Shown here piece by piece: positions 4,238 to 20,089 of a stretch of 39,327 bases of DNA. The notes under the pieces are model-generated. The model was not told the DNA's origin. It worked only from the letters and a program-made list of their open reading frames with translations, and did no database searches. Made by a program: the position numbers and the translations under genes. This DNA is from Chthoniobacteraceae bacterium (lineage in GTDB: Bacteria; Verrucomicrobiota; Verrucomicrobiia; Chthoniobacterales; Chthoniobacteraceae): the NCBI GenBank assembly GCA_031409655.1, contig JANNXQ010000256.1, forward strand, positions 1 to 39,327, given 5' to 3'. Each line of letters begins with the position of its first letter. Position 1 is the stretch's first letter.

Positions 4238-4382
4238 TCTCCGTCCTTCCCCGGCCCACCTCGGAGCGCCGCCGTCCCGTGCGGCAAACCTTTTACAACC
4301 CGCGCAGCGCACACCCAGGACTTACGTACCCAAGGCGCCGCGCCCGGCGCAGCCAGCCTACCAGCCTGTTGAAATACCTGCC

Positions 4383-4637
4383 CCCCTGTTCAGGAAACCC
4401 CGAAGCGGGTTCAAGGGCGAAGCATCCGTGCTCAAGGCGGTCGCCTTCGTGTTCAGGAAAGAGGGATCCCTGTTCAAGGACGCCGCATCCCTGTTCCGGA
4501 AAGAGAGATCCCTGTTCAGGGACGCCCCATTCCCGTTCAGGGACGCGAGATTCCTGTTCAGGGACGCCCCATTCCTGTTCAGGGAACTGAGATTCCTGTT
4601 CAGGGAACCGGGATTCCTGTTCCGGGAGGCAGGATTC
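4383..4637. repeat. Array of 12 degenerate 21-bp units (near-palindromic TYCCTGTTCAGGGA + 7 variable nt)
   Basis: GTTC/GCTC cores at 4388, 4409, 4430, 4451, 4472, 4493, 4514, 4535, 4556, 4577, 4598 and 4619, an exact period of 21. Confidence 0.9.
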
Positions 4638-5042
4638 GGGAGAGCTTTCCGAGTCCTGCGAGACCATTTTCCGGCAAATTTTTCCCGCCCCAGTCGCGAA
4701 TTGCCCTTTACCCCCGCCCTCACCTCCGGCAGCGTCAAGCGCCGTGAGTAAAGCGGTTTTCCCCATCCGAAAGCGTGGCTATTCCATCGGCAAGACCGTG
4801 GACGACGCCATGGTCGCCATCGAGCGCGACAACCCGCGCCTCAAAGGCGTCCTCCCCAAGGACTACGCCCGCCCCGGCCTCGACAAGCAGCGCCTCGGCG
4901 AACTCATCGACCTCATCGCCACCATCAGCCTCATCGCTGCCAGCGAGGGCGAGAAGACCCACCGCTCCGTCGATCTGCTCGGGCGCGTTTACGAATACTT
5001 CCTCACCCGCTTCGCCAGCGCCGAGGACAAGAACGGCGGCCA

Positions 5043-5106
5043 TTCGAGCGGAGCGAGAAAGACTGCCATAGGCAGCCCGCAGGGTGAACGCGGGGGGCGT
5101 TCATCA
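5043..5106 (+). mobile_element. 64-bp mini-hairpin insertion 1 in hsdM
   Basis: Removal restores GGC CAA TTC (GQF). Closely similar to the copy at 18841-18903. Confidence 0.8.
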
Positions 5107-5162
5107 ATTCTAAACCCCGTCCTGCGTCGTGCGCTGCCTCGTCGAGATGCTCGCCCCCTACA

Positions 5163-5231
5163 CTGCCCTGCGCGGCAGCGCATTCCTTCAAAGCGAAGCC
5201 TCACCGCAGGTCGTGAGCGCAGCGAAGGACA
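5163..5231 (+). mobile_element. 69-bp mini-hairpin insertion 2 in hsdM (in frame)
   Basis: Removal restores CCC TAC AAA GGC (PYKG). Contains GCGAAGC, ACCGCAGGT and GCGCAGC hairpins. Confidence 0.75.
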
Positions 5232-5343
5232 AAGGCCGCATCTACGACCCCGCCTGCGGCTCCGGCGGCATGTTCGTGCAGTCGGAAAAATTCGCCGAAT
5301 CCCACGGCGGCAAGTTGGGCGACATCAGCATCTATGGCCAGGA

Positions 5344-5424
5344 CAAATGGGCGCGGCGGCAGCGCCCATTTGGTCTCGCAATGCGAGCCCGCAGGGTGAG
5401 GCTGCGGCGGCAGCAGCCGAAACA
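5344..5424 (+). mobile_element. 81-bp mini-hairpin insertion 3 in hsdM (in frame)
   Basis: Removal restores CAG GAA AGC AAC (QESN). Stems CAAATGGGCGC/GCGCCCATTTG, CTCGCA/TGCGAG, CCCGCAGGG. Confidence 0.8.
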
Positions 5425-5503
5425 AAGCAACGCCAGCACCCACCACCTCGACGTGATGAACCTCGCCCTGCGCGGCATCGAAGCCGACTTCGGCCCTGAG
5501 CAC

Positions 5504-5626
5504 ACCGTCACTTTCGGGTTTTGCGACCCGCTAAACCGGGAACGCCGCTTCATTCCAATGCGGCTCGACGACGCCCCCATCAAGGGCTCCTTGGCGCAGT
5601 TCCTTTACATCAACTTGCTCCCAGAG
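5504..5626 (+). pseudogene. C-terminal half of a TIR (TIR_2-like) domain fused in frame to the hsdM remnant
   Basis: TFGFCDPLNRERRFIPMRLDDAPIKGSLAQFLYIN matches, from recall, the 'TFRFRDPLNKERRFIPLRLDDAPIKGSLAQFLYINW' segment of PVC-bacterial TIR proteins. Confidence 0.65.
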
Positions 5627-5673
5627 TGCAGACTTTTCCAGCTACGCGACCAAGACAAAACATCCCAATACCC

Positions 5674-8600
5674 ATGAACCCATTCACAATCGTAGTTACA
5701 AGCAGCATCGACGGATTGATTGAGGCGCAGGAAATCGTCAAGGAAGTTACTGCAAAGAGGGACGTTCAGCTTATTTGGCATCCGGATTCCGACCGGCTTC
5801 AAACAGAAATTCTTTCGCAATGCGAACGCGAGATTTCCGATTGCGACTGCGTCTTAACCGTTGTGGGCCACCGATACGGCGAATTCCTTCCGGGGAAAAG
5901 AATATCGCTCGGTCACGCGCAAGTGGACTTCGCGTTGGCCCGATCGTTCAGACCACTCCTGGCCTTCAAGCTGCCCGGCACTCAAGCAGACTTCCTCCCA
6001 CGAGAGAGCCACGATGCTAGGATGCGCATGGTGAAAGACCTACATGACAGTCGCGTTCTGAACGAAGTCTCTGATCTCGATCAATTCCAAAAGAGCTTGG
6101 TGAGAGCGCTTTGGTGGCTGCTCATAGAGTCCCGTCAGACTCGGAAAATTATTTTGGTGAGCAGCACATTTGCCGATCTCAAAGAGGCCAGGGGCGAACT
6201 CCAAGAGGCGGTGGGGACGTATTCGACGGGAATGCCTTGCGTTATGTTTGAGGAATTACCGAAAGGACTTTCAGCTGAAGACACATCCCGGCGGTTGGCC
6301 GAACAGACTGGTTTGTATTTTGGGTTACTATCGGATTATCGGGGGTCGGTTATTCCCGGCAAGAAGCTCAGTTATACCGAGATCGAGTATGAGGCGACCT
6401 ATAGTCTGCAACGAAGTCCAATTGTCGTATTTGAAGCCGACGATCCAAGTCTCCTTAAATCGCACGAGCAAAGCGCTGACGATTTTGAAAGAGTCAGGGA
6501 ATTCAACGCCCTTCTTCGCGAACGGCACAAACCGGTCCGCCGCTTTCGCCGGTTGGGACATCTCTACAGTTTGGCGATCGATGCATTGGGGGAATTGGAA
6601 AGAGCCGGCAAGCTGAACCGTGACGTGAACACAAGTGCGTCGGACTCGACTCTTGGTCCTCAACCTCCGCAGCCATTCTTTGTCCAGGAATATAGCCTCG
6701 CTGTTGAAACGAATCTCGTCGGACGGGACGACGAACTGCGCGCTCTGGACGGATGGCTCACGGATTCGAGAGCACCTCATTTCGGAGCGCGCATCTATTG
6801 CATCGACGCGGCTGGCGGAATGGGCAAGAGCGCCCTCGCTTGGAATTGGTTGCAGCGCCTTCTCTCAAAATCAACGCCTCACTTTGAGGCCGTTGCCTGG
6901 TTCAGTTTTTACGCAGTGGAAACCGGGTTTGATGTTATGGCAGAGACTGTTCTGCCCTATCTCCTGCGGCTGCCAGGACTCGAACAGATTCGTGACGCCG
7001 ATGTCTCATCTCTCGAGAAGCTGCTGCGCATCGTGGAAGAACGGCGGATTCTTCTCGTTCTCGATGGTCTTGAGCGCCGGATGAAACTCTACACAAAATT
7101 TAGAGCTCGTGGATACGAGGGACGTGACCTCATGGAGCTTGTCGAGGAACGCGTTGAGTTTCATCGCCACTTGTTCGGCGAATGGCCCGACGAAATTGCG
7201 CGCCAACTTGCCAGGGAGGATTGCTATCGGATGACCGATGAGGAGGCCGAGGTGCTCCGCCGACTTGCCCGCCCCGGACGTTCTCGCGTGCTGATCACAT
7301 CGCGTTTCTTTCCATCCGATCTACAGGACCGATCGACGCCAATTACCGGCGCCACGACTCTCCCTGACCCTAAAAACCTCGCCGGTGTTGCTCGGCTGCC
7401 GCTTGAACCGTTCGATTTGCCCACAGCTCGGGAACTTGCTGTGGCTTTGGATCTGCCATGGCAGCAGGAGTTTTCGGGTCTCCACAGCAAAGTCGGAGGA
7501 TACCCTCTCTATTTAGCGTTGGCATTCGCGTTTGCCGCACGGGGCAAAGACTCTCCAGAGGAATTTCCCCGCCGAATCGCAAAAATTGCCTCTGCCCTTC
7601 GGGGCGATGCGGAAGAGGCTCGTATCGCGGTCGTGACGCTTGGCATCGACGATCTTTCAGACGAACACCGGGAAGTTCTCTATGAAGTGGAGTTCTGCCC
7701 AATCGCAACCAGTTTCGTTGACCTCCAGAGGGTCCTTTGTGGGCCGCAAGCGCTCTTTGAGCGTCCTTCGGAACTCGAGGCGGACCTGCGACTTTTGCAC
7801 TCCAGGAAGCTCGTAGGGTGGGATCGTCAGACGGGCAGTTGCGACATGCACCCGGTGGTTCGTCATGCAGTGCGACACTTTGGAGATCAAGGTGCAATTA
7901 ACCAGCGAATCATTGACCGACACGGCGGTGATTCTCAGGAGGCGTTGGCTGCCTCAGGCGCATCAGCGGTTAACGAGAGCTTCGGCGAGCTACTGCTTCG
8001 GCTCAACGCATTCAGCCGGAAAGAGTCGCATTCTGAAAAGGCGTTTGTCGCCTACCTGGTTTTCGTGGACGACTGGTTCCGATATAACTCCTCACAAATT
8101 GACAAGCGGTTGGAGTATCTGGAGGAATTCTACCAACATGAGTTCAAGTATTCAGTCCCGGCGCGCATCGGACTTCTCACTCGTCTCGCGGACACCTTTC
8201 TTCTCAAAGCACAACTTGATCGCGCGCAACGACACGCCACACGGGCGTTTGAACTGGCGACGCAATCCGCCGACGGGAGTTTAATTCGAATGGCGTGCAA
8301 CGTGTGCGCCGATATCGCTAGTAGCCAAGCTCGTCGCTTCGAAGAGGATCGGTTTCTACGAACTGCGGCGCAACACGAAATCTTTTCACTATCGGATCGG
8401 TCTTGCGTTTGGTTGCTGTGTTCGCAAATCGCAGTAAACGCAGCCACTTCGAGGATAGATGAGGCGGTTCATGTTCTTTCCTACCTACAATCACACTACC
8501 CAAGCGATGCCGACGTTATCAAGGGGGAATTCAATTTGGCCGCTGCACAGTGGCTAAAGGGTGAGCGGCAAAGGAGTGTGCTGGAGGAAATCCTCGCCCG

Positions 8601-10302
8601 ATTTCGCAGCGATTGTTTTTCTCGCAACCTTGTTTACGGGCGTCTCCACAGTGTAATCATGTCCGCCGAGCTCGCCCTGCTTTTTGGCGAGAGTCCTGAA
8701 TGCCAGAAGCTCGTTGATGATACTTTAAGCGACGTGGAGATGACGCGGTTTACCGCCTCCCGGCTCGAATTGACCGGCAAACGGGCTCGGCTCGCGACCA
8801 GGCGAGGGCGGCCGCAGTCAGCGTTGGAGGAAGGCCGGCGGGTTCGCAACGAGGCGCAACAGCGTGGACTATCTTGCATCGAAGCGGAGGCCTGTCTGGC
8901 AATTGCGGAGGCACACTTTGCCGTTAATGAACGAGAACCGGCTACTCACTTCGCAAAGGAGGCGGCCAGCCTAGCCAATGCAGACGGTGAGCCTTATTGT
9001 CTGCGCTTGCTGAAGAACCAAATTCACCAGTTCTTCACCGAGCATCTTCAAGAGCCCGTGCCCGAGTTCCCGCCGTGCCCAGCTCAGCGGCTCTCGGAAC
9101 TTCCCCCGATGCCCCCAATTCCAGCTCCGACTCCGACAATTACAGACGTTTCCGACACGAGTGGCTGGTCCGACGAACAGATCGATCGCCACTATTGCGA
9201 GGTTCTCGTCAGGGTCGAATGGGCCAACACGACCGGTTCGGCTCGAAAGTGGTGGGAAGCCTTTGAAAGCGAGAACGCACATCGCAAGGCACTCGTTCTC
9301 AGGTTGGCTGAGTCGCTCGCGATCTCCAAAGCGACAATTACCGAATTCTTCCTAGCCTATGTCTATTCAAACACCGACAACATTCAGGCGAACCTTGACT
9401 ACATGCACTATTCGAGGTTGAAGAAACACGAGGAGGCTACAAAGAAAGCAAAGGAGAAGGGGGAACCCGTGCCACCGCTTCCCTTTACCCCAGCGGACGC
9501 ACAAGCGCTCCCGGCGGGAGTTTCGGATTCTCGCGGGTGGACGGACGAAGCGGTCAGACATCGGCTCGACGAGGTGAAGAATTTCTTGGATTGGCCGGCG
9601 ACCACCGGTTCGGCACGCAAATGGTGGGAAGCGTTTGAGCAGGAGAACGGCCATCGGATGGTGCTGGTGCTCCGGCTGGCGGAGGAACTCCATATTCGCA
9701 AAGCGACAATCACAGAGTTCTTCCTCGCTTATGTCTATTCAAACACGGACAATATCCAAGCGAACCTTTACTATCTCGAATATTCCCGGCTGAAGAAGTG
9801 GGAAGAACAAACGAAGCGGCAGAAGGAGGCCGCAGATCGTTTTCAAGCGTTGCTACCGGAACTGGCACCCGACCACAAGCTGCCAGAGCTAACGGAGAAG
9901 GATCTCGAAATTCTCGATGCACTCTCTGAGGAGGACATTCCAACAGACGTTCGCGAGCGGTTCGATGAATCACTGAGAACCGCGAGACAGCGAATCGCGG
10001 CTCACAAGGAGCGGGAAGTGGCCGCAGCGAACCGCCGATTGGCGGAACTGGTCCCGCAACTGGATTCCAGCGGTCCAGTCCCGGTCTTGACGGCCGAGGA
10101 TGCGAAAATTCTGCGGCTTGCAACAACCGACCACCTCCAAGCGCCAGTGCTTGCCAAGTTGCACGAGGCAATCGGTAGTGCTCTCGACGCTAAGGGGGAA
10201 GCTAGTGATGATCTCGTTGAACTATTCGGCGAGACAAATTCTCCCGAACATGATGGCGGAACGAATTCCGCTCCAGAGGATCCCCTCGGGGACAAGCCGT
10301 GA
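5674..10302 (+). CDS. NLR/STAND-like protein: tandem DUF4062 domains, P-loop NTPase, helical/TPR-like region, duplicated C-terminal domain (~1542 aa)
   Basis: DUF4062-like 'ILVSSTFADLKEARGEL...YFGLLSDYRGS...SYTEIEY' preceded by a degenerate copy. 'LVGRDDEL', Walker A AAGGMGKS (6808-6831), Walker B ILLVLDGLE, 'RVLITSR', 'GGYPLYL', 'DMHPVVR'. Visibly less GC-rich than flanks. Start at ATG 5674. Confidence 0.85.
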   Translation: MNPFTIVVTSSIDGLIEAQEIVKEVTAKRDVQLIWHPDSDRLQTEILSQCEREISDCDCVLTVVGHRYGEFLPGKRISLGHAQVDFALARSFRPLLAFKLPGTQADFLPRESHDARMRMVKDLHDSRVLNEVSDLDQFQKSLVRALWWLLIESRQTRKIILVSSTFADLKEARGELQEAVGTYSTGMPCVMFEELPKGLSAEDTSRRLAEQTGLYFGLLSDYRGSVIPGKKLSYTEIEYEATYSLQRSPIVVFEADDPSLLKSHEQSADDFERVREFNALLRERHKPVRRFRRLGHLYSLAIDALGELERAGKLNRDVNTSASDSTLGPQPPQPFFVQEYSLAVETNLVGRDDELRALDGWLTDSRAPHFGARIYCIDAAGGMGKSALAWNWLQRLLSKSTPHFEAVAWFSFYAVETGFDVMAETVLPYLLRLPGLEQIRDADVSSLEKLLRIVEERRILLVLDGLERRMKLYTKFRARGYEGRDLMELVEERVEFHRHLFGEWPDEIARQLAREDCYRMTDEEAEVLRRLARPGRSRVLITSRFFPSDLQDRSTPITGATTLPDPKNLAGVARLPLEPFDLPTARELAVALDLPWQQEFSGLHSKVGGYPLYLALAFAFAARGKDSPEEFPRRIAKIASALRGDAEEARIAVVTLGIDDLSDEHREVLYEVEFCPIATSFVDLQRVLCGPQALFERPSELEADLRLLHSRKLVGWDRQTGSCDMHPVVRHAVRHFGDQGAINQRIIDRHGGDSQEALAASGASAVNESFGELLLRLNAFSRKESHSEKAFVAYLVFVDDWFRYNSSQIDKRLEYLEEFYQHEFKYSVPARIGLLTRLADTFLLKAQLDRAQRHATRAFELATQSADGSLIRMACNVCADIASSQARRFEEDRFLRTAAQHEIFSLSDRSCVWLLCSQIAVNAATSRIDEAVHVLSYLQSHYPSDADVIKGEFNLAAAQWLKGERQRSVLEEILARFRSDCFSRNLVYGRLHSVIMSAELALLFGESPECQKLVDDTLSDVEMTRFTASRLELTGKRARLATRRGRPQSALEEGRRVRNEAQQRGLSCIEAEACLAIAEAHFAVNEREPATHFAKEAASLANADGEPYCLRLLKNQIHQFFTEHLQEPVPEFPPCPAQRLSELPPMPPIPAPTPTITDVSDTSGWSDEQIDRHYCEVLVRVEWANTTGSARKWWEAFESENAHRKALVLRLAESLAISKATITEFFLAYVYSNTDNIQANLDYMHYSRLKKHEEATKKAKEKGEPVPPLPFTPADAQALPAGVSDSRGWTDEAVRHRLDEVKNFLDWPATTGSARKWWEAFEQENGHRMVLVLRLAEELHIRKATITEFFLAYVYSNTDNIQANLYYLEYSRLKKWEEQTKRQKEAADRFQALLPELAPDHKLPELTEKDLEILDALSEEDIPTDVRERFDESLRTARQRIAAHKEREVAAANRRLAELVPQLDSSGPVPVLTAEDAKILRLATTDHLQAPVLAKLHEAIGSALDAKGEASDDLVELFGETNSPEHDGGTNSAPEDPLGDKP
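9148..9804 (+). repeat. Internal duplication (period 372 nt / 124 aa) of a ~95-aa domain in the STAND gene
   Basis: Two copies of SD..GW.DE...V....W..TTGSARKWWEAFE.EN.HR..LVLRLAE.L...KATITEFFLAYVYSNTDNIQANL.Y..YSRLKK.EE, with SD starting at 9151 and 9523. Confidence 0.95.
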
Positions 10303-10693
10303 GTTTCGTTTGATCGGCGAGAGACGATCGCTGGTCCATCCTATACATGCGTAATCTCGGCCGCTTCATCGTGGAAGAGGGTCGTCAACACGAAACGGCC
10401 AATCTCCGTCGAGGACTCACTAGCTGACTGGAGAGCCGGATGGGGAAAAACCGTCCGTCTGGGTCAGAGGAAGGCGCGGCGTAACCCAAGGCGCCATCCC
10501 ATCCTGTATTTGGTTGCCACGCATGGCACCTTCGGTTGCAGCAAAGACAAGCGCCGCAAGCCGGCGAACCGCTTCAGGGACGCCAAAGACCCGTTCCGCA
10601 TCGTGATCGTGCGCGACATGTGGCTGACCAGTTTCGACGCGCCCTGCCTGCACACCATGTATGCCGACAAGCCGATGCAAGGCCACGGCCAGG

Positions 10694-10772
10694 GGAAGGA
10701 CGAAGGATGAATGCAGAAGGAAGAAGTTCAGGCGGCTCCGGTTCATCCTTCATAATTTTGCCTTCATACTTT
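10694..10772. repeat. Heptamer inverted-repeat element (GAAGGAT-type) at an hsdR deletion junction
   Basis: gaaggacgaaggatgaatgcagaaggaagaa ... ttcatccttcataattttgccttcatacttt. Confidence 0.75.
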
Positions 10773-10895
10773 GCGCCGCGGCGGCCAGGGCAATCCGACC
10801 TTCGACACCGCGCAAGCCATCGCCGTGATGCTGGAGAAACACGGCGTCGCCTGCGACCTGATGCACGGTTTCAACTGGGACAAGTGGACCGGGGC

Positions 10896-10967
10896 AAATG
10901 TCGAATGACGAATTCGGAATGACGAATGGTCGGGACTTCGAACTTCGCACTTCTGCATTCGAACTTT
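10896..10967. repeat. Heptamer inverted-repeat element (GAATGAC / TTCGAAC-type) at an hsdR deletion junction
   Basis: aaatgtcgaatgacgaattcggaatgacgaat ... acttcgaacttcgcacttctgcattcgaacttt. Confidence 0.75.
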
Positions 10968-11059
10968 CCCAGAGCGTGACCATCGACTGGACCCTCCACG
11001 AAAGCGCGCGTGCCAAGATCAAGGTGATGGTGAAACGCATCCTGAACAAACACGGCTAT

Positions 11060-11139
11060 TGGCTTCCTCGCTGCCGCCGCTCGGTCGGGCTGCGCCCAAT
11101 GCTGCGCATTGCCTGTCTCAGTCGCCCTGCTCCTTCGGC
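11060..11139 (-). mobile_element. ~80-bp mini-hairpin insertion 4 in hsdR (reverse orientation)
   Basis: Splits the GY|xPDLQ motif. The reverse complement GCCGAAGG...GCAATGCGCAGCATTG GGCGCAGCCC...GGAAGCCA is followed by target A. Confidence 0.75.
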
Positions 11140-11374
11140 TCGCCCGACTTGCAGGACGAGGCAGTGAAGACCGTGCTGGCACAGGCGGAGCTGCTGTGCG
11201 CGGAGTGGGTGTGAATCAAATCGCAGCCAGGCCCCAGCGTCGCGCAATCCTCACATCCCCCCTAGGATTGAAAAGGAACGGAAACCGGCGCGAACTTCGG
11301 TAGTCGGCCTGAGTAAAGTAAACTGAAGATTCATCGTCATCCGCTTTTCACCGTCGCACTGCATGAAATCCGAA

Positions 11375-11631
11375 GAACGCCAACGGCGTTTCATCCATCA
11401 GCCCGGCGAGGAGACGGAGGGGAATAGAGAAGATGGTGGGTGGGCGAGTAGGTTGCGAGGCACGAGCTACCCTGGGATTGAGCATCAAAATAGGCACAAC
11501 CCTGAAAGGGTTGAGTCAATCGTCGTGGAGGACGAAACCCCTTCCGGGTTTATCGCGCATTTGCCCTATGAAACCCAGGGTAGCTCGTGCCTCGCAACCC
11601 TGCGCTGGAAGATGGAACGCCGTTGGCGTTC
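11375..11631. repeat. Nested palindromic REP/REPIN-like element
   Basis: Terminal IR gaacgccaacggcgtt (11375-11390) / aacgccgttggcgttc (11616-11631). Perfect 26-bp inner IR 11451-11476 / 11574-11599. Internal hairpin aaccctgaaagggtt. Confidence 0.85.
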
Positions 11632-11962
11632 TCGCAACGGGACTGGACGCAGCGGATAACTGCTCGTCATCGGACAGGGTGAGAATGGGCGTCTCAGAAA
11701 TGAAATAACGGGCTGTCGCGCAGGAGCCTGAGGTTTGTCGGGCTTTGTCTGTATCTTTACTCTGGAAAGGCTGGCGGATGGCCTTGGTTGGCACGCGTAA
11801 AGCTAAGTCGTATTTCGGCTTCAGGAATAACTCTGAAGCTAACGTAAAGTGAAACCAAATAAAACCAAAGAGGTCAGCCAACCTCCGCCGATCTGGGGCC
11901 AGGATATCCACTGGGGCCAGCGGCACTGGGCGGCCATCCCTCCGAATAGAACTAATCAGTCC

Positions 11963-14192: not shown

Positions 14193-15878
14193 TTAGTGAG
14201 CGAAATTGGCGTTGGGTTCGACATTCGTCAGGGTCGAGGCGGCGGCATTGCCGGCGGCGGCGGGCGCTCCGGCGGCGGTCATATCCACGATCGGGCCGTA
14301 GCGGTTACTCAGGGCGATGTCGTAGTTGTTGATCGCGTTGTTCGAGGCGGTGTTGCGGACGATGACGTTTGCGGCGCCGTCCACGTCGATGCCGCGATCG
14401 TTGCCGGTCACGCTGTTGCCTTCGATGCGGTTGCCGGTGGAGAGGGTGTGGATGCCGGCGCCGGCGCCCGCCAGGACGCCATTGCCGCTGGCGTTGCAAC
14501 CGGTGACGAGGGTGTTGAGTGCGATGCGGATGCCGTCGCCGGAGTTCGCGTTCGCGGTGCAGGTGCTGATCGTCGAGCCGTCACCGGCGAAGATGCCCGC
14601 GCCGGTGCCGCTGTTCACGATCGCGTTGCTGTTGCTATTGCCGGTGGCGTTGCAGCCGGTCATCGTCGTCTGGGAGAGTGCGAAGATGCCGGTCGAGACG
14701 GCCGCGGTGGAGGCATTATTGCGGGCCGTGCAATGGGTGAGCGTACTGCCCGCCCCGGCAAAGATCGCGCGGGCGGCCACGTTACCACTGGCTGTGCAGT
14801 TCGTGAGGGAACTGCCGTCGCCCGCCGAGATCGCGGTGCTGCCGACCGCGCCCGTGGTCCCGTTCGTGACCGCCGAGCAGCCCGCTAAGATGGCGCCTGC
14901 TGCCGCAAAGATCCCGAGGTTTGTGTTACTCAGCGCCGTGCAGTTTTGCACGCTCGCGTTGTCGGCAAGGTTGAATCCATCCTGATTGTTCGCTGCGGTG
15001 CAATTGATCAGTGAACAGCCGAAGCCTCCGACGAATCCGCCACCCGTGGTCTGTTTTGCGGCGGCACTGTTTTGGACGACGCAGTTTGCCGAGCACGAGA
15101 ATCCATCGAGGCCATTGCTCACCGCGCTGCACTCGCTCACGCTGCAGTAGTCCGAGAGGCTGAATCCACTCGAGGCATTCGCGGTGGCGCTGCAGCCTGC
15201 GATGGCCGAACTCCCGGCAATGCTGAAGCCAGTGAAGCCATTCCCGGAGGCCACACAATCGCGCACGGTCGCACTCGACCCGATATTGAAGCCGGCTCCC
15301 GTCGCGCCGGTCTGTCCGACCGCGGTGCATTCGATGACCTTGAACGAAGTGCCGGTGAAGATGCCCGTGCCGGCGATGGCCCGCACTTCGCAATTCCGCA
15401 CCGTGCCGTTGTTCCCGACCCGGATCCCCGTGCCGGTGCCGGTATGCACACGCAGATGCGAGACATTGGTTTCGGTCACGTTCCCAAAAACCCCATTGGT
15501 GCTCCAGCCACGCAGGGTGCCGTTGCGGATGGTGGCGTTCACGTTATTCACGCGGATGCCCGTGAGCCCGGTCCCGCCGCCCACCAGTTCGAAGCCGCCG
15601 AGATCGAGCGTCACATTATCCGCATTGATGGTGATGCCATTCTGCCCAGCCACGCCGGTGAGATTGCCAGTGACAAAGTAAGACCCCGCCGTGGCAATGA
15701 CAAACGGCAGCGTCGAGATCGGCGTGCGCGGCTCGATCTGATCGAGCGTCTTCATCGTCGGCGCGGGGGCACCCGGCGGCGTGAGCAGGCCTTGGGCGAG
15801 AATCAAGGATGAAGGGTGAAGGAGGAAGGCGGCGGCGAGGAGAGCACGCGGGAAGAATGTGGGTCGAATGGTGTTCAT
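14193..15878 (-). CDS. Secreted right-handed beta-helix repeat protein (paralog 1)
   Basis: Signal peptide + QGLLTPPGAPAPTMKTLDQIEPR, 'VTLDLGGF', and ~22-aa 'C.A..N...G' coils. Confidence 0.85.
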   Translation of the reverse strand: MNTIRPTFFPRALLAAAFLLHPSSLILAQGLLTPPGAPAPTMKTLDQIEPRTPISTLPFVIATAGSYFVTGNLTGVAGQNGITINADNVTLDLGGFELVGGGTGLTGIRVNNVNATIRNGTLRGWSTNGVFGNVTETNVSHLRVHTGTGTGIRVGNNGTVRNCEVRAIAGTGIFTGTSFKVIECTAVGQTGATGAGFNIGSSATVRDCVASGNGFTGFSIAGSSAIAGCSATANASSGFSLSDYCSVSECSAVSNGLDGFSCSANCVVQNSAAAKQTTGGGFVGGFGCSLINCTAANNQDGFNLADNASVQNCTALSNTNLGIFAAAGAILAGCSAVTNGTTGAVGSTAISAGDGSSLTNCTASGNVAARAIFAGAGSTLTHCTARNNASTAAVSTGIFALSQTTMTGCNATGNSNSNAIVNSGTGAGIFAGDGSTISTCTANANSGDGIRIALNTLVTGCNASGNGVLAGAGAGIHTLSTGNRIEGNSVTGNDRGIDVDGAANVIVRNTASNNAINNYDIALSNRYGPIVDMTAAGAPAAAGNAAASTLTNVEPNANFAH

Positions 15879-15908
15879 GGAGGTAGTGATGCGGATTGGC
15901 TGTCGGGA

Positions 15909-17192
15909 TTAAAAGTTCGCCCACGGGCTGGTCGCGGTGCTGGGGGTCTGGATCGGCCCGATGTTTGCGCCCGTGCTCACATCGTAGTTTGCGGTGGCGT
16001 TGCCGGTCGCGCTGTTGCGGACGACGATGCTCGTGCCACTGGTGCGGATTCCATATTGGCTGTTGCTGACGACGTGATTGCTGTCGATGCGATTGTTATC
16101 TCCGTTGGTTCGGATGCCGTCGCCATTAGGGGAACTCCCGCCGTTATGGCTGGAGTTGCAACCCGTGACCAGGCAACTGCTGGCCACGCGGATGCCGACC
16201 GCTTTGTTGTAATTCGTCGTGCAATCCTTAATGGTCACGCCAACGTCAGCGGAGATCCCCATGCCAGTCGAGATGCTGGCGGGTGCAGTGCTCGAATTGC
16301 TATACGAAGTGCAGCCGATGATGGTCGATCCGGCGTCGGCGCGAATGCCTCCCGAAGTCGCTGCGGTGCTGCTGTTGAAACCAGCGGAGCAGTGCGTCAT
16401 CGTACTGGCTTGGCCGAGAAGAAAACCCCATTCCGTCTGGTTTGCGAACGCCGTGCAGTTGGTCACCGTGCTGCCGACGCCGATAGAGATCGCGGCGGTA
16501 AAGGCATTGTTCATGGCCGTGCAGTTGACCAGCGTGGAGCCGCCGCCCGCGCCAATGGCTGCGGTGCCGTTGGAAGGGGCTTGGTTATCCGTCACCGTGC
16601 AATTGCTAATCACGCATCCGGCACCGGCAGAAATAGGGCTGCCGAAATTACTATAAGCCTTGCACCCGTCGATTTGCCACCCGTTGCCAGCGAGCAGGAT
16701 CGGCTGGCCTGTGCAACCCGAGGCCGAAAGCTGCAAAAAAGCGCCGCCACGCGCCACGATGGATAAGGACGACACGCACTGGACGGCACGACCCAACCCC
16801 GCAAGCGCGCCATTTTTCACCACGCAGCGATCCGCCGTGGGAGCGATAGTAATGCCTTCGCCCCCCGTCCCGGAACTGCGCGAGATGAGAAACCCCTGAA
16901 GATCGATCGTGACGCCGGCGACGGTCACATGAATCCCATTCGGCTTCGTTATCCCCAGGTTGGAACTCAAGTAATAGCTCCCGGGCGCGCTGATGATGTA
17001 ATGATAGTTAGCGTCATTCGGCAGCGGATTGACCGTCCGCTGGAGATTGATGCGCGGCTCGATCTCATCGAGCGTCTTCATCGTCGGCACGGGCGCGCCG
17101 GGCGGGGTGAGGGTGCCCTGGGCAAGGATGACGGCTGAAGGTTGAAGGATGAAGAAGCCGATGAGCAGCGTGAGATGGAGGGTGGGTTTCAT
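15909..17192 (-). CDS. Secreted right-handed beta-helix repeat protein (paralog 2)
   Basis: MKPTLHL...AQGTLTPPGAPVPTMKTLDEIEPR, 'VTIDLQGF', beta-helix coils, C-terminal PWANF. Start at ATG 17192. Confidence 0.85.
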   Translation of the reverse strand: MKPTLHLTLLIGFFILQPSAVILAQGTLTPPGAPVPTMKTLDEIEPRINLQRTVNPLPNDANYHYIISAPGSYYLSSNLGITKPNGIHVTVAGVTIDLQGFLISRSSGTGGEGITIAPTADRCVVKNGALAGLGRAVQCVSSLSIVARGGAFLQLSASGCTGQPILLAGNGWQIDGCKAYSNFGSPISAGAGCVISNCTVTDNQAPSNGTAAIGAGGGSTLVNCTAMNNAFTAAISIGVGSTVTNCTAFANQTEWGFLLGQASTMTHCSAGFNSSTAATSGGIRADAGSTIIGCTSYSNSSTAPASISTGMGISADVGVTIKDCTTNYNKAVGIRVASSCLVTGCNSSHNGGSSPNGDGIRTNGDNNRIDSNHVVSNSQYGIRTSGTSIVVRNSATGNATANYDVSTGANIGPIQTPSTATSPWANF

Positions 17193-17216
17193 AGTGGTTA
17201 GTTTACGGATGGGAAC

Positions 17217-17309
17217 GTAGCACTGGGCTTGAGCCCGCACCGGCTGCGCTCACTGGGACGGCGTGCGGATTTTTCAGGCCACGCGGTGACGGGCTGAAGC
17301 CCTGGACTA
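17217..17309. repeat. GTAG-type REP doublet
   Basis: gtagcactgggcttgagcccg (17217-17237) and inverted cgggctgaagccctggacta (17290-17309), which overlaps the Calx-beta gene stop. Confidence 0.6.
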
Positions 17310-18689
17310 TTTTTTTGCGCATTCGACATAGACGGTGCCGGCTTTGGTGAATGTGTCGGTGTGGCCCAGGTCGTCGCTCGCGGCGACTTCCACGCGGAAG
17401 GCGTGGCCGGCAGACTTGCGCGGAAAGCTGAGGGCGAGTTGCAAGGTCACGGTCACGCCGTCGGGACCGCTGCCAGTGACGGTCGTCTGCGCCAGGTCGA
17501 GCCGGGCGCGCTTTGTTTCCAGCACGCTGTTACTTCCTGGTAACTGCCCATGGCCGAAGGTCACGGCATCCTCGCAATCGTCGCCGTCGTGATGATGACC
17601 CTTGCGCCGACGGTCGTGTTTCTTCCCGCGCGTCTCCGCGAGGCTGAAGGTATTGCTCGCCTCATCCCAGCGGACATAGAGCGCGGTGTCGTGGCCGTCG
17701 CGCAGGCGGAGGTCGATGGTCTTCAAGGCGCGCCACACTTCACCCTCCGGCACGGTCCAGATGACGGTGAAGAGTTGCGTCTCCTCGACGGGCACGCGCG
17801 CTTTGTCAGGCGCGAAGTCGAAGGCGCCCGTGGTGAGTGTGAAGTCGCGGATGGTGCAGGTCGCGCTGCCATCCGCGATCGTCCCGCCGGTCGCGTTACT
17901 CAGGGTTACTTGGAAGGTCTCGTCGGGCTCGGTCAGGTCATCCCCGAAGATAGGCACGCTGATCTGCCCGGACGTGGCGCCTTGCGGGATGTCGAGCGTC
18001 CCGAGGCGCCCGCCGTAGTCGGACGGATTCGGATCGGTGATACTCCCGCTGCCGGCGGTGGCCGTGCCAGGGACCGTGGCGAAATGCACGGTCGTGCCGC
18101 TGAGGGTGCCATCGCCGGGTTTGGGATGGGATAAGGTGACGGTAAAGTTCACGTTGCGCGTCTTCGTTTTGCCGAAGGGTTCGCTCGCGGAGATATCGGC
18201 GATCGAGATGCGCGGCGGGCCGTCGTCGTTGCGGATGAGGCCGAGGGCGCTACTCGAGCCGGAGGTCGTGCGCGCGCCGACGATGTTCTGCGCCACCAGA
18301 GCGAAGACTTCATCCGGCTCGATGCTCGGGTCGCCGAAGACCGTCACGGTCACACTCCCTGCTGTGGCGCCGGCTCGGATGTTCACGGGCACGCTGCCCG
18401 GATTCAGGAAGTCCACGCCCGAGCCAGGCGCAGCGCCTGCCGTCGCCGCAGCGGTGCCCACCGGCGTCAAGAACCCCGAGGACAAGCTCACGAGCGCCGA
18501 GACCGTCGTGGCACTCGGACGATCCAGGGTCACGCTGAAGACCAGCGTGGTCGTGCCCGAGTCGCCCTCGAAGACTTCCGCATCGTGGAGGGTGAGGATG
18601 GGAAGATTGCTTTGAGCGCGCGCGAGCGGTGGGGAGAGGGTGAGGGCAAGGAGTGCGGCGAGCGCGACGGAGTGGAGGCGAGTGTTCAT
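17307..18689 (-). CDS. Secreted protein with two Calx-beta domains
   Basis: 'EGDSGTTTLVFSVTL', 'GD..IEPDE.F', 'I.NDD', second copy 'GDDLTEPDETFQVTLSN'. Signal peptide from ATG 18689. Confidence 0.85.
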   Translation of the reverse strand: MNTRLHSVALAALLALTLSPPLARAQSNLPILTLHDAEVFEGDSGTTTLVFSVTLDRPSATTVSALVSLSSGFLTPVGTAAATAGAAPGSGVDFLNPGSVPVNIRAGATAGSVTVTVFGDPSIEPDEVFALVAQNIVGARTTSGSSSALGLIRNDDGPPRISIADISASEPFGKTKTRNVNFTVTLSHPKPGDGTLSGTTVHFATVPGTATAGSGSITDPNPSDYGGRLGTLDIPQGATSGQISVPIFGDDLTEPDETFQVTLSNATGGTIADGSATCTIRDFTLTTGAFDFAPDKARVPVEETQLFTVIWTVPEGEVWRALKTIDLRLRDGHDTALYVRWDEASNTFSLAETRGKKHDRRRKGHHHDGDDCEDAVTFGHGQLPGSNSVLETKRARLDLAQTTVTGSGPDGVTVTLQLALSFPRKSAGHAFRVEVAASDDLGHTDTFTKAGTVYVECAKK

Positions 18690-18735
18690 GGTTTGGTGAT
18701 GGGTAAGTCGTGATGCATTCGGAGCACGGCAGCAG

Positions 18736-18949
18736 GCTTTGGAGTGCGGCGACTTGTCGCCGCTTTGTAGTGGCGGAAACTTGTTTCCCGCGGCGGGGAG
18801 ATGACGTGTCGCTGCGCAACTCTCCCCGCCACTGCGGACATTCGAGCGGAGCGAGAAAGCCTGCCGAAGGCAGCCCGAAGGGCAGCGCCGGGGGGCGCCG
18901 GCAACTCCGCACCGCCGCAAAGCGGTGACAAGTCACCGCACTCCAAAGC
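18736..18949. repeat. GGAG-type REP doublet (REPIN-like) carrying a nested insertion
   Basis: IR gctttggagtgcggcgacttgtcgccgctttg (18736-18767) / caaagcggtgacaagtcaccgcactccaaagc (18918-18949), each arm itself a hairpin. Confidence 0.85.
18841..18903 (+). mobile_element. 63-bp mini-hairpin insertion 5 (homologue of insertion 1)
   Basis: TTCGAGCGGAGCGAGAAAGCCTGCCGAAGGCAGCCCGAAGGG...GGGGGGCG...CA. Removal restores the hairpin TGCGGA-CAAC-TCCGCA. Confidence 0.8.
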
Positions 18950-19027
18950 GCCTGGCCGCAGCGCGCGTGTGCTAGCCGGGGGGAAATTCGGATGCGGGTG
19001 GGAGAAGCACATATTCGTTCCTCCAGG

Positions 19028-20089
19028 CTACGGCGTGCCGAGGAATTTATTCGTCGAGGACACCGTGCCCGTGCCGATGACGCTGCACCCGATGGCGACG
19101 TTGGCCTGGAGCGCCACGCCGCCATTGCGCGAGCCGCGGCAGAAGCTCGCGGTGCCATTGACGGTGAGCCCAAACGCGCCCGAGACACTGCTCCCAAAGC
19201 AATGGTGGGCATTCGATCCGCCCAAGCCCACGCCAGAGGTGCTGACGCCCGTCGAGTTGCTGGCCATCACGACCGAAACGCCGTTGGCGGAGACGCTGGT
19301 GCCGTGGCAATTGCTGGCGGTTCCGGCCTCGATCCCCTTCCCGGCGGCGGCGACCCCGCGACAGTTTTCCGCCAGCACGCAGTTGATGGCGTCATCGGCG
19401 CCCGTGGCGCCGACGGATTCGGCGTAGGAATCGGTGACCGTGCCGCCGACGATGCCGAATGTGCCACTGACGTTGACCGCGCAGTCCCGCACCAGTCCGC
19501 CGGTGATCCCGGCACCGGCGCAGACGGAGACCGCGCAGCGTTCGATGACCAGGGTGGGAACGTCGCTGAACGCCAGAAAGATCCCGTCACTTCCCACGCC
19601 GCTGACGCTGACCTCCGAGACTCGGAGATTGTCGCTGGAGGGACTTGCGCTGGACGTGCTCACGCCGTCGAGAAATCCCCCTGGCGTGAAGGTGCCGGCG
19701 GCGAAGGTGGTGGTCCCGCGGATGTGGCCGTTTCTGACGGTGACGTTCCTGCGCACGCCGGTGATGGTCACGGCGTTCCCCGCGGCCGGGCTGGCGGTCG
19801 AGGAGATCGTGAAGCCATTGAGATCGAGGGTCACATTATCCGCGGCGATGGTGATCGCGGTGCCGGTGGCGACGGTGAGGTTGCCCGTGAGGTAGTAGCT
19901 GCCCGACGCGCCGAGGACGAAAGGCGCGCTGGAGATGGGCGTGCGGGCTTCCAACTGATCGAGCGTCTTCATCGTCGGCGCCGGCGCGCCGGGCGGGGTG
20001 AGGGGGCCCTGGGCGAGGAGGAAGGATGAGGGATGAAGGATGAAGGATGCGGTGAGCAGCGTGAGGAGGAGGGCGGATGGGGTTTTCAT
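19028..20089 (-). CDS. Secreted right-handed beta-helix repeat protein (paralog 3)
   Basis: AQGPLTPPGAPAPTMKTLDQLEAR, 'GSYYLTGNL', 'VTLDLNGF', short Cys-containing coils. Confidence 0.85.
   Translation of the reverse strand: MKTPSALLLTLLTASFILHPSSFLLAQGPLTPPGAPAPTMKTLDQLEARTPISSAPFVLGASGSYYLTGNLTVATGTAITIAADNVTLDLNGFTISSTASPAAGNAVTITGVRRNVTVRNGHIRGTTTFAAGTFTPGGFLDGVSTSSASPSSDNLRVSEVSVSGVGSDGIFLAFSDVPTLVIERCAVSVCAGAGITGGLVRDCAVNVSGTFGIVGGTVTDSYAESVGATGADDAINCVLAENCRGVAAAGKGIEAGTASNCHGTSVSANGVSVVMASNSTGVSTSGVGLGGSNAHHCFGSSVSGAFGLTVNGTASFCRGSRNGGVALQANVAIGCSVIGTGTVSSTNKFLGTP

Follow-up and report, generated by a model that had tools for sequence, protein, structure and literature searches.

DUF4062, since renamed NIR, is described as a TIR-like NADase with a catalytic glutamate that serves as the effector of Avs proteins and acts by abortive depletion of NAD+ (bioRxiv 10.64898/2026.09.04.749371; bioRxiv 10.64898/2026.05.01.722283); the NADase role of this domain is already known and is not what is new here. 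For bNACHT11, a decoy has been raised as a hypothesis on phage proteins (PMC11702601), and in Legionella and F plasmids the C-terminal extensions of type IV coupling proteins are reported to bind substrates or adaptors (PMC8740702). [quoted passage not shown]

The longest open reading frame call for the gene begins at TTG 5521. We prefer ATG 5674 because it overlaps the stop of the upstream frame (ATGA) and because the homologue P0002, which is 76% identical, begins at the equivalent position. As the initial annotation had stated, the 4.6-kb frame is uninterrupted from 5674 to 10302 and less GC-rich than its surroundings (GC content 55.3% vs 63.4% for the genome; 59% at third codon positions, with 82-87% in the three other window genes compared). 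The product combines a DUF4062 domain lacking the catalytic glutamate, a second DUF4062 domain that has it (E238), a STAND NTPase, a TPR-like solenoid and two 95-residue modules, arranged as follows.

5674..10302, forward strand: intact NLR-type gene P0001, 1542 amino acids in a single stop-free frame
5674..6138, forward strand: DUF4062/NIR domain 1, probably inactive (Pfam match at residues 8-85, E 4.8e-7)
6139..6633, forward strand: DUF4062/NIR domain 2, putative NADase (Pfam match at residues 160-240, E 2.5e-8)
6688..7866, forward strand: STAND NTPase of the NB-ARC/MalT-like class, residues 339-731, with Walker A K385, Walker B D464, sensor R544, GxP and MHP
7888..9048, forward strand: TPR-like helical solenoid, about residues 739-1125, ending at the DGxPY/F motif of the family
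9148..9432, forward strand: module copy 1, residues 1159-1253, like the VirD4 C-terminal domain (73% best and 69% median identity to 138 VirD4 domains)
9520..9804, forward strand: module copy 2, residues 1283-1377, a five-helix domain (77% best and 73% median identity to the same 138 VirD4 domains)
9817..10200, forward strand: helical tail, common to stand-alone multi-module proteins and FGE-sulfatase fusions and not to VirD4

P0002 and P0003 are 76% identical to P0001 over residues 330-1150; a metagenome scan for relatives of these two found none. The gene was found in none of the three same-genus genomes compared (0 of 3 for the STAND region), and among 100 relatives only two gave a match to the STAND region at E 1e-10, at just 34-35% identity. 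The host assembly (G000) comprises 6.85 Mb and is 94.9% complete and 5.3% contaminated.

Both DUF4062-like domains recognized by the initial annotation score above the Pfam cut-off. The second contains the conserved motif S-x-T-E-x-E-Y with E236 and E238 (the E238 codon lies at 6385), and the glutamate is kept in all nine aligned domains of the domain-2 type. In the first, H81 and Q83 align with the two glutamates, the glutamine also being present in P0002, and this domain is probably inactive. From the shared motif, E238 may be equivalent to E108 of PsAvs2. By analogy with the described NIR effectors, P0001 probably kills its own cell through destruction of NAD+. All STAND motifs that had been named could be located (LVGR at 348-351, AAGGMGKS at 379-386, ILLVLDGLE at 459-467, ITSR at 541-544, GYPL at 609-612 and MHP at 725-727), and an alignment of 31 family members shows no variation at G381, G382, G384, K385, D464, E467, R544, H726 and P727. 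In Pfam, this region matches AAA_16 (E 6e-6) and NB-ARC (E 2.5e-4), both under the cut-off, and NACHT only at E 0.068. The long helical region that had been proposed appears as an intact solenoid in an AlphaFold2 model of residues 330-1400 (mean predicted local distance difference test score, pLDDT, 88.6). With this model Foldseek placed the STAND-TPR structure 6mfv on top (E 1.9e-8), with Avs3 (8dgc) at E 1.2e-5 and Apaf-1, CED-4 and plant NRCs (NRC2) at E 1e-8 to 1e-5. Matches to TPR_12 or TPR_MalT occur in relatives; P0001 itself reaches only E 0.17 with TPR_12 in Pfam.

The PADLOC check that had been proposed gave no family, including no Avs, for the whole protein and five of its parts at E 0.1 in library version 2.0, dated 2023. 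The domain combination, which the initial annotation did not recognize among named systems, has no PADLOC match, but the effector is a known one, DUF4062 being already published as an NADase effector of Avs proteins. Judged from its sequence, P0001 is an Avs-like NIR-STAND-TPR protein of a family without a PADLOC name, and the effector-and-STAND half of the mechanism is likely correct.

What is new in P0001 is the duplicated C-terminal module, noticed already in the initial annotation, which by alignment closely copies a domain found in type IV coupling proteins. Its two copies are 71% identical to each other, 32 of 67 conserved residues differ synonymously between them, and both sit appended beyond the normal end of the STAND family. 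The predicted fold consists of five helices (model pLDDT 94.6), and the module has an invariant W/F-Y-V-Y-S-N-T-D-N surface. The module has no Pfam match above the cut-off, Fe_dep_repress at E 9.5e-5 lying below it, and no match in PADLOC, NCBIfam or PHROGs. Against PDB sequences the best E was 0.59, and ESM Atlas gave no usable match from the NLR or the VirD4 side. At the level of fold, the best values were E 1.6 (Foldseek against PDB), Z 4.8 (VIA, 48,161 chains) and E 1.1 (BFVD); this lack of a clear fold match does not make the module a new fold. The helical tail after copy 2 has matches in nine of 3311 collected sequences, none of them VirD4. An origin of the module from phages or plasmids was considered and rejected: INPHARED (50,697 phage records) and PLSDB (72,556 plasmid records) contain no match, and IMG/VR contains a single module locus, a ClpX-like fusion at a contig end.

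A search with the module returned 798 proteins of 441-2000 residues. Among the best 120 of these, almost all from rank 43 on are VirD4/TraG coupling ATPases of about 800 residues with the module at the C-terminus (Pfam T4SS-DNA_transf, E 2.7e-39). Clustering at 50% left 415 matching proteins, of which 150 were listed. At the level of genome loci, the best 80 of 154 comprise 65 with this VirD4 (their record titles mostly name Bdellovibrionota, Oligoflexia or Deltaproteobacteria), 9 with ClpX-like proteins, 4 with divergent VirD4-like proteins (Planctomycetota or Verrucomicrobiota), 1 NLR and 1 stand-alone module.

The source of the module appears to be an uncultured and possibly predatory Bdellovibrionota class (that of G402), hereafter the donor class, in which 107 of 124 genomes contain the module and 121 of 124 contain TraC of a chromosomal F-like type IV secretion system. 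In all five donor genomes checked, a syntenic TraE-TraK-TraB-TraV-TraC operon is accompanied by bPH2, SH3 and M23 genes; TrwC, TraI_2 and TraH were not found in any of the five, other relaxase families lying outside this search. The gene for the donor VirD4 usually lies among housekeeping genes. In three genomes, picked because VirD4 and operon share a contig, it lies about 5 kb upstream of the tra operon (G454), about 14 kb from the operon and adjoining a homologue of the operon's pilin-like gene (G481; TrbC/VirB2 E 0.05) or about 18 kb from TraC (G455); most genomes lack such linkage. The module is old in the donor class: five of its genomes, in which the match is weaker, carry divergent tandem forms on this VirD4 family. 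We take the donor class to be UBA2361, which is an unconfirmed guess. UBA2361 and Oligoflexia together form Bdellovibrionota_B (PMC13200544).

Several further observations concern these bacteria. In a subgroup of the donor class, stand-alone module proteins of 95-122 residues are found at L128-L134, partly in synteny. At L090-L094, the chromosomal F-like operon has the pilin-like gene at its end, together with a divergent 670-residue gene and a TraD-like gene. Two ideas about partners of the module were dropped. The first, by which effectors of the donors would bear the module as their secretion signal, was set aside as each of the five donors had one match; the second, that the N-terminal domain of the stand-alone proteins is a partner of the module, was set aside as that domain was not found in five donors (a search with no positive control) and is itself a diverged module copy. 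A supposed "symbiotic F-type T4SS" in Omnitrophota proved wrong, PMC10066038 being concerned with F-type ATPases.

Outside the donor class, the module is rare. It was found in none of 400 other genomes of the host's phylum, in two of 300 other genomes of the host's order and in 15 of 401 Planctomycetota-phylum genomes (centre genome G407 included). Cognate TraC is present in 20 of 20 donors versus none of 17 non-donor carriers, G000 among them, and G000 contains no donor-type VirD4 (best VirD4-like match 23% identity) and no other module copy. The partners of the module in 55 scanned non-VirD4 proteins, chosen from the longer ones, include STAND-TPR receptors with various effectors, DUF4062-STAND-TPR among them, nSTAND1, kinases, TIR, TIR-FGE, SIR2, KGGVGR ATPases, KGGVGR-ATPase-TIR, ClpX-like ATPases and FGE-sulfatase. 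In the STAND family of P0001, 31 distinct proteins have at least two modules and six relatives have none, a count ascertained largely via the module itself; in four of these six the family end motif lies at most 70 residues from the C-terminus. Among module carriers, the STAND domains have diverged deeply: between P0001 and eight distant relatives the STAND domain is 26-30% identical, versus 62-74% for the best-matching module. With the close homologue P0002 the order is reversed, P0001 sharing 82% identity in the STAND domain and 74-75% in the modules. Conflict-type neighbours, seen at seven of 14 non-donor loci in a scan of 84 of their 129 listed neighbour open reading frames, include bDLD3, Roc-COR-TIR, nSTAND5, NACHT, kinase-PP2C and a KGGVGR ATPase.

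Other carriers and relatives broaden this picture. The host itself encodes a module-less DUF4062-STAND-TPR paralogue (G000 contig C234, 300-3536, reverse strand), which offers a natural control. In Planctomycetota, the commonest non-donor form is the ClpX-like fusion. ClpX-like ATPases ending in the module (L045, L049, L051, L055, L062, L073, L080, L113 and L141-L152) lack the N-terminal zinc domain by pattern in 40 of 40 cases, and an IGF-like loop is kept in at least 17 of 40 ClpX-like carriers by a rough pattern. P0168 and P0177 join a ClpX-like AAA+ ATPase, a VirD4-like ATPase and the module in a single polypeptide. In P0245 a STAND-TPR protein with two modules continues into FHIPEP (FlhA/InvA-type export gate), a second secretion-system domain on an NLR.

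Combining these data, we tentatively favor a model, held at somewhat below even confidence, in which P0001 is a suicide NLR with an integrated bait for cargo delivered by a type IV secretion system, whose recognition triggers NAD+ depletion. In its home, the VirD4 C-terminal domain would probably bind secretion substrates or an adaptor, by analogy with the extensions of DotL and TraD. The proposed sequence of events in the receptor is: (i) at rest, the STAND domain would be closed, as is assumed for the family, (ii) a bacterium of the donor class would contact the cell and deliver cargo via its F-like system, which would act on other bacteria, (iii) the coupling-protein-binding signal of the cargo, the putative ligand, would dock on the modules, (iv) the STAND domain would oligomerize and cluster the second DUF4062/NIR domain with E238, and (v) NAD+ hydrolysis would arrest or kill the cell and starve the attacker, as expected from NIR-Avs proteins. 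The first DUF4062 domain, with Q83, could be a scaffold or a brake. The bait half of this model is the uncertain step.

The architecture is that expected of a decoy, in that a non-canonical domain has been added to a conserved NLR scaffold and has a recognizable source protein (the VirD4 C-terminal domain, 73-77% identity). A substrate-receptor role would account at once for the occurrence of one domain at the end of a coupling ATPase, of a ClpX-like unfoldase and of proteins with death effectors; ClpX-type unfoldases and coupling ATPases alike need a substrate receptor, and the company that the module keeps fits the bait model. Extending it, we consider it possible, if rather doubtful, that Planctomycetes, Verrucomicrobia and others hold an immune arm against contact-dependent attack by the Bdellovibrionota class, with the coupling-protein domain as bait leading to death through NLR, TIR, SIR2 or kinase proteins, to destruction of cargo by ClpX-like proteins or to its soaking up by stand-alone modules.

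Several observations weigh against the bait model. In Xanthomonas, effectors bind VirD4 at its central all-alpha domain and a C-terminal fragment showed no binding (PMC8740702; PMC12624023). The ligand of the module is putative and the binding step is argued by analogy. In the donors, the operon has its own adjacent TraD-like protein at four of five loci, the co-occurrence of VirD4 and TraC inside one class is expected from shared ancestry, and the donor class itself has stand-alone modules as well as a single ClpX-like fusion. The target of the donor secretion system could be a eukaryote. Among the 17 non-donors, all of which are incomplete metagenome-assembled genomes, one is probably misbinned (L035, a 1.7-kb contig with a VirD4 of the donor type, the title of its record being Pirellulaceae). 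Defence-type neighbours were found at only seven of 14 non-donor loci, by manual reading and without a background control.

The history of the module bears on the same question. A tree of 90 rows and 95 columns, which left out the 20 of 60 NLR copies with less than 60% identity to VirD4, has the shape of a star, in which copies from NLR, ClpX-like and KGGVGR proteins are scattered among the VirD4 domains; in five NLRs the two copies form a pair with starred support. None of the bootstrap trees contained a single NLR clade. Against the bait model, one clade of 27 NLR modules versus 21 VirD4 domains was not rejected (approximately unbiased test, p 0.53), and repeated independent capture is therefore not shown; moreover, for only 31-37 of 63 NLR modules does a VirD4 domain come closer than any other NLR module does. 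Similarly, the modules of P0001 probably came from a cassette circulating among non-donors and not directly from VirD4, because the matches of the tail that follows copy 2 are to stand-alone arrays and to FGE fusions, and in no case to VirD4.

The strongest alternative, which we consider rather unlikely, is that P0001 is an ordinary anti-phage Avs-like receptor, in which the TPR solenoid senses a phage protein, the NIR domain depletes NAD+ and the modules are accessories for stability, oligomerization or a second input. NIR-STAND-TPR is the layout of PsAvs2, which is described as activated by phage terminase; module-less relatives with the same core exist (six proteins and the C234 paralogue), the gene lies in a type I restriction-modification remnant and its solenoid is intact. 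However, an anti-phage role leaves unexplained why the module is kept at 60-87% identity on receptors with cores only 26-30% alike and why ClpX-like, TIR and SIR2 proteins, in which there is no TPR sensor, are also fused to it; in addition, PADLOC gave no Avs match. Of the new anti-phage receptor proposed in the initial annotation, the single-gene STAND/NLR with an NAD-degrading effector, carried as restriction-modification cargo, stands, but nothing specific to phage was found. Phage sensing through the TPR region is possible, and it can be compatible with the bait model, as two inputs to one receptor.

Alternatively, the module could be a homotypic adaptor, like effector-associated and death-like domains, that links the NLR to partners or to itself, its VirD4 origin being incidental. 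This is unlikely. It would account for the tandem copies in 31 of 31 NLR rows, where 136 of 137 strong VirD4 rows have one copy each, and it agrees with genomes in which several module genes occur, three on one contig in G407 and two each in G408, G414 and G421 (4 of 16 other non-donors). A stand-alone form adjoins a bDLD3 gene, the receptor P0017 also has matches to effector-associated-domain (EAD) families, and in stand-alone proteins the modules follow an older copy that has diverged (hhalign probability 96%). Yet 13 of 17 non-donor genomes, including the 94.9% complete G000, have a single module-bearing gene, so that the partner for such an adaptor is missing. The C-terminal half of the module is, moreover, near-invariant across phyla; effector-associated and death-like adaptors are usually highly divergent. 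EAD, bDLD and death-fold models gave no Pfam match at E 1, with a best structural Z of 4.8 among 48,161 chains.

It is also conceivable, but improbable, that the module binds a widely conserved ligand of the cell, i.e. a host protein, a nucleotide or a nucleic acid, which the NLR guards or by which it is regulated, with the same housekeeping interaction being used by VirD4, ClpX-like and ParA-like ATPases. The very strong conservation across unrelated hosts and the frequent fusion to P-loop ATPases of different classes, including the triple fusions of ClpX, VirD4 and module in P0168 and P0177, speak for such a ligand. However, beyond the donor class the module occurs rarely and in patches, unlike a housekeeping domain, and many of its non-donor partners are immune-type domains. 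That P0001 belongs to the host's own type IV secretion system, as a substrate or a component, is very improbable and already largely refuted: the module does derive from a protein of such a system, but neither G000 nor 16 other carriers has a cognate TraC, the VirD4-like match of G000 is only 23% identical and donors mostly have one module match, on VirD4.

The gene lies between remnants of hsdM and hsdR, in agreement with the decayed flanks reported in the initial annotation.

4783..5043, forward strand: hsdM remnant 1, from the end of HsdM_N into the start of N6_Mtase (E 1.3e-26 to PADLOC MTase_I, positions 91-171 of 932)
5210..5500, forward strand: hsdM remnant 2 in another frame, with the motif YDPACGSGG (Pfam N6_Mtase E 3.1e-13; PADLOC MTase_I E 7.9e-17)
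5501..5677, forward strand: non-HsdM tail of the upstream frame, its stop overlapping the NLR start (ATGA)
10516..11214, forward strand: hsdR remnants in four small pieces, from helicase domain 3 and from the beginning, the middle and the end of the C-terminal domain

The Pfam matches of hsdM remnant 1 to HsdM_N and N6_Mtase are weak, and remnant 2 is broken up by short insertions. The tail at 5501..5677 has no match in PADLOC, Pfam or PHROGs; it may resemble the end of a TIR domain. The hsdR remnants match PADLOC REase_I (E 9e-22 and 3.7e-6), T1R_D3-like in Pfam and positions 2-40, 276-307 and 308-328 of Pfam T1RH-like_C. In a same-genus genome, an open 482-residue hsdR frame is followed by genes like the fn3 and collagen-like genes of the window; this speaks for a decayed type I restriction-modification locus with P0001 as acquired cargo.

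The insertions within the hsdM and hsdR remnants lie at 5040-5430 and 10700-11140 of the window, and parts of them recur beside other restriction-modification pieces on contigs C66, C158, C179, C195, C279 and C291. On C195 of G000, positions 1-2450 hold an HsdS-like piece, a 369-residue cargo gene and the end of hsdR, i.e. a second type I cargo slot; this cargo gene may be SIR2-like, judged from a motif. Just upstream of the hsdM remnant, the window has an imperfect tandem repeat at 4380-4640, with offsets of 42 and 84 bases and gttcaggga-type units. At 11340-11650 lies a palindromic element resembling repetitive extragenic palindromic sequences, many copies of which are present on other contigs and in same-genus genomes. 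On the reverse strand, 14193-20089 encodes paralogous secreted proteins, probably beta-helical, with an N-terminal TPPGAP-PTMKTL motif.

The bacterial NLRs with defined triggers in the cited papers sense phage proteins, and a bait receptor would extend NLR immunity to inter-bacterial attack. If the bait model is true, P0001 would be an example of a bacterial NLR directed at a predator or parasite that is itself a bacterium, and not at a phage, and it would name the prey range of the class and the receptor of its secretion signal; if confirmed, it would provide a sequence-level case of an integrated decoy in bacteria and a new sensing principle. The role of the vertically inherited F-like system of the donor class becomes testable, with bait-carrying genomes as candidate prey. 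Even if the bait model fails, the module is an undescribed, strongly conserved domain common to coupling proteins, ClpX-like ATPases and immune proteins, and as a confidently folding unit of 95 residues it could be used as a hook for substrates of type IV secretion systems.

Among described systems, PsAvs2 (bioRxiv 10.64898/2026.09.04.749371) is like P0001 in its N-terminal DUF4062 NADase with a conserved glutamate, its central STAND domain and its C-terminal TPR, and abortive NAD+ depletion would be expected in both. Unlike PsAvs2, P0001 has tandem DUF4062 domains, the first lacking the glutamate, two VirD4-like modules after the TPR region and no PADLOC Avs match; the words "VirD4" and "tandem" do not occur in the main text of the PsAvs2 preprint. 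Swarozyc (bioRxiv 10.64898/2026.05.01.722283) shares the TIR-like DUF4062 NADase and abortive infection, but according to its preprint, in which "VirD4" does not occur, it is a small portal-activated protein that lacks a STAND domain. Like the abortive conjugation factor AbjA (bioRxiv 10.64898/2026.03.10.710775), P0001 would tie death of the recipient cell to a type IV secretion system; compared by description only, AbjA differs in targeting the TrbE ATPase of an incoming conjugative plasmid, and its abstract mentions neither an NLR nor a coupling-protein domain. The donor protein is, like DotL, F TraD and Xanthomonas VirD4-XVIPCD, a VirD4/TraG-type ATPase with a C-terminal extension (PMC8740702; PMC12624023), but this extension is a compact five-helix domain that has no sequence or fold match in PDB, and the Xanthomonas effectors bind the central domain instead. 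In titles and the openings of abstracts, the coverage being incomplete, we found no literature that links VirD4 C-terminal domains to NLRs or describes this domain or this secretion system. Finally, plant NLRs that contain an integrated domain (RRS1-WRKY) and bNACHT11 under its decoy hypothesis (PMC11702601) share with P0001 an extra domain at the sensor end as a bait for a foreign protein; in those cases, as described, the decoy mimics a host target, whereas the bait of P0001 would copy the attacker's own substrate receptor (73-77% identity). The effector half of P0001 thus resembles that of the NIR-Avs proteins, its layout resembles that of plant NLRs with integrated domains, and it stands outside the systems named in PADLOC.

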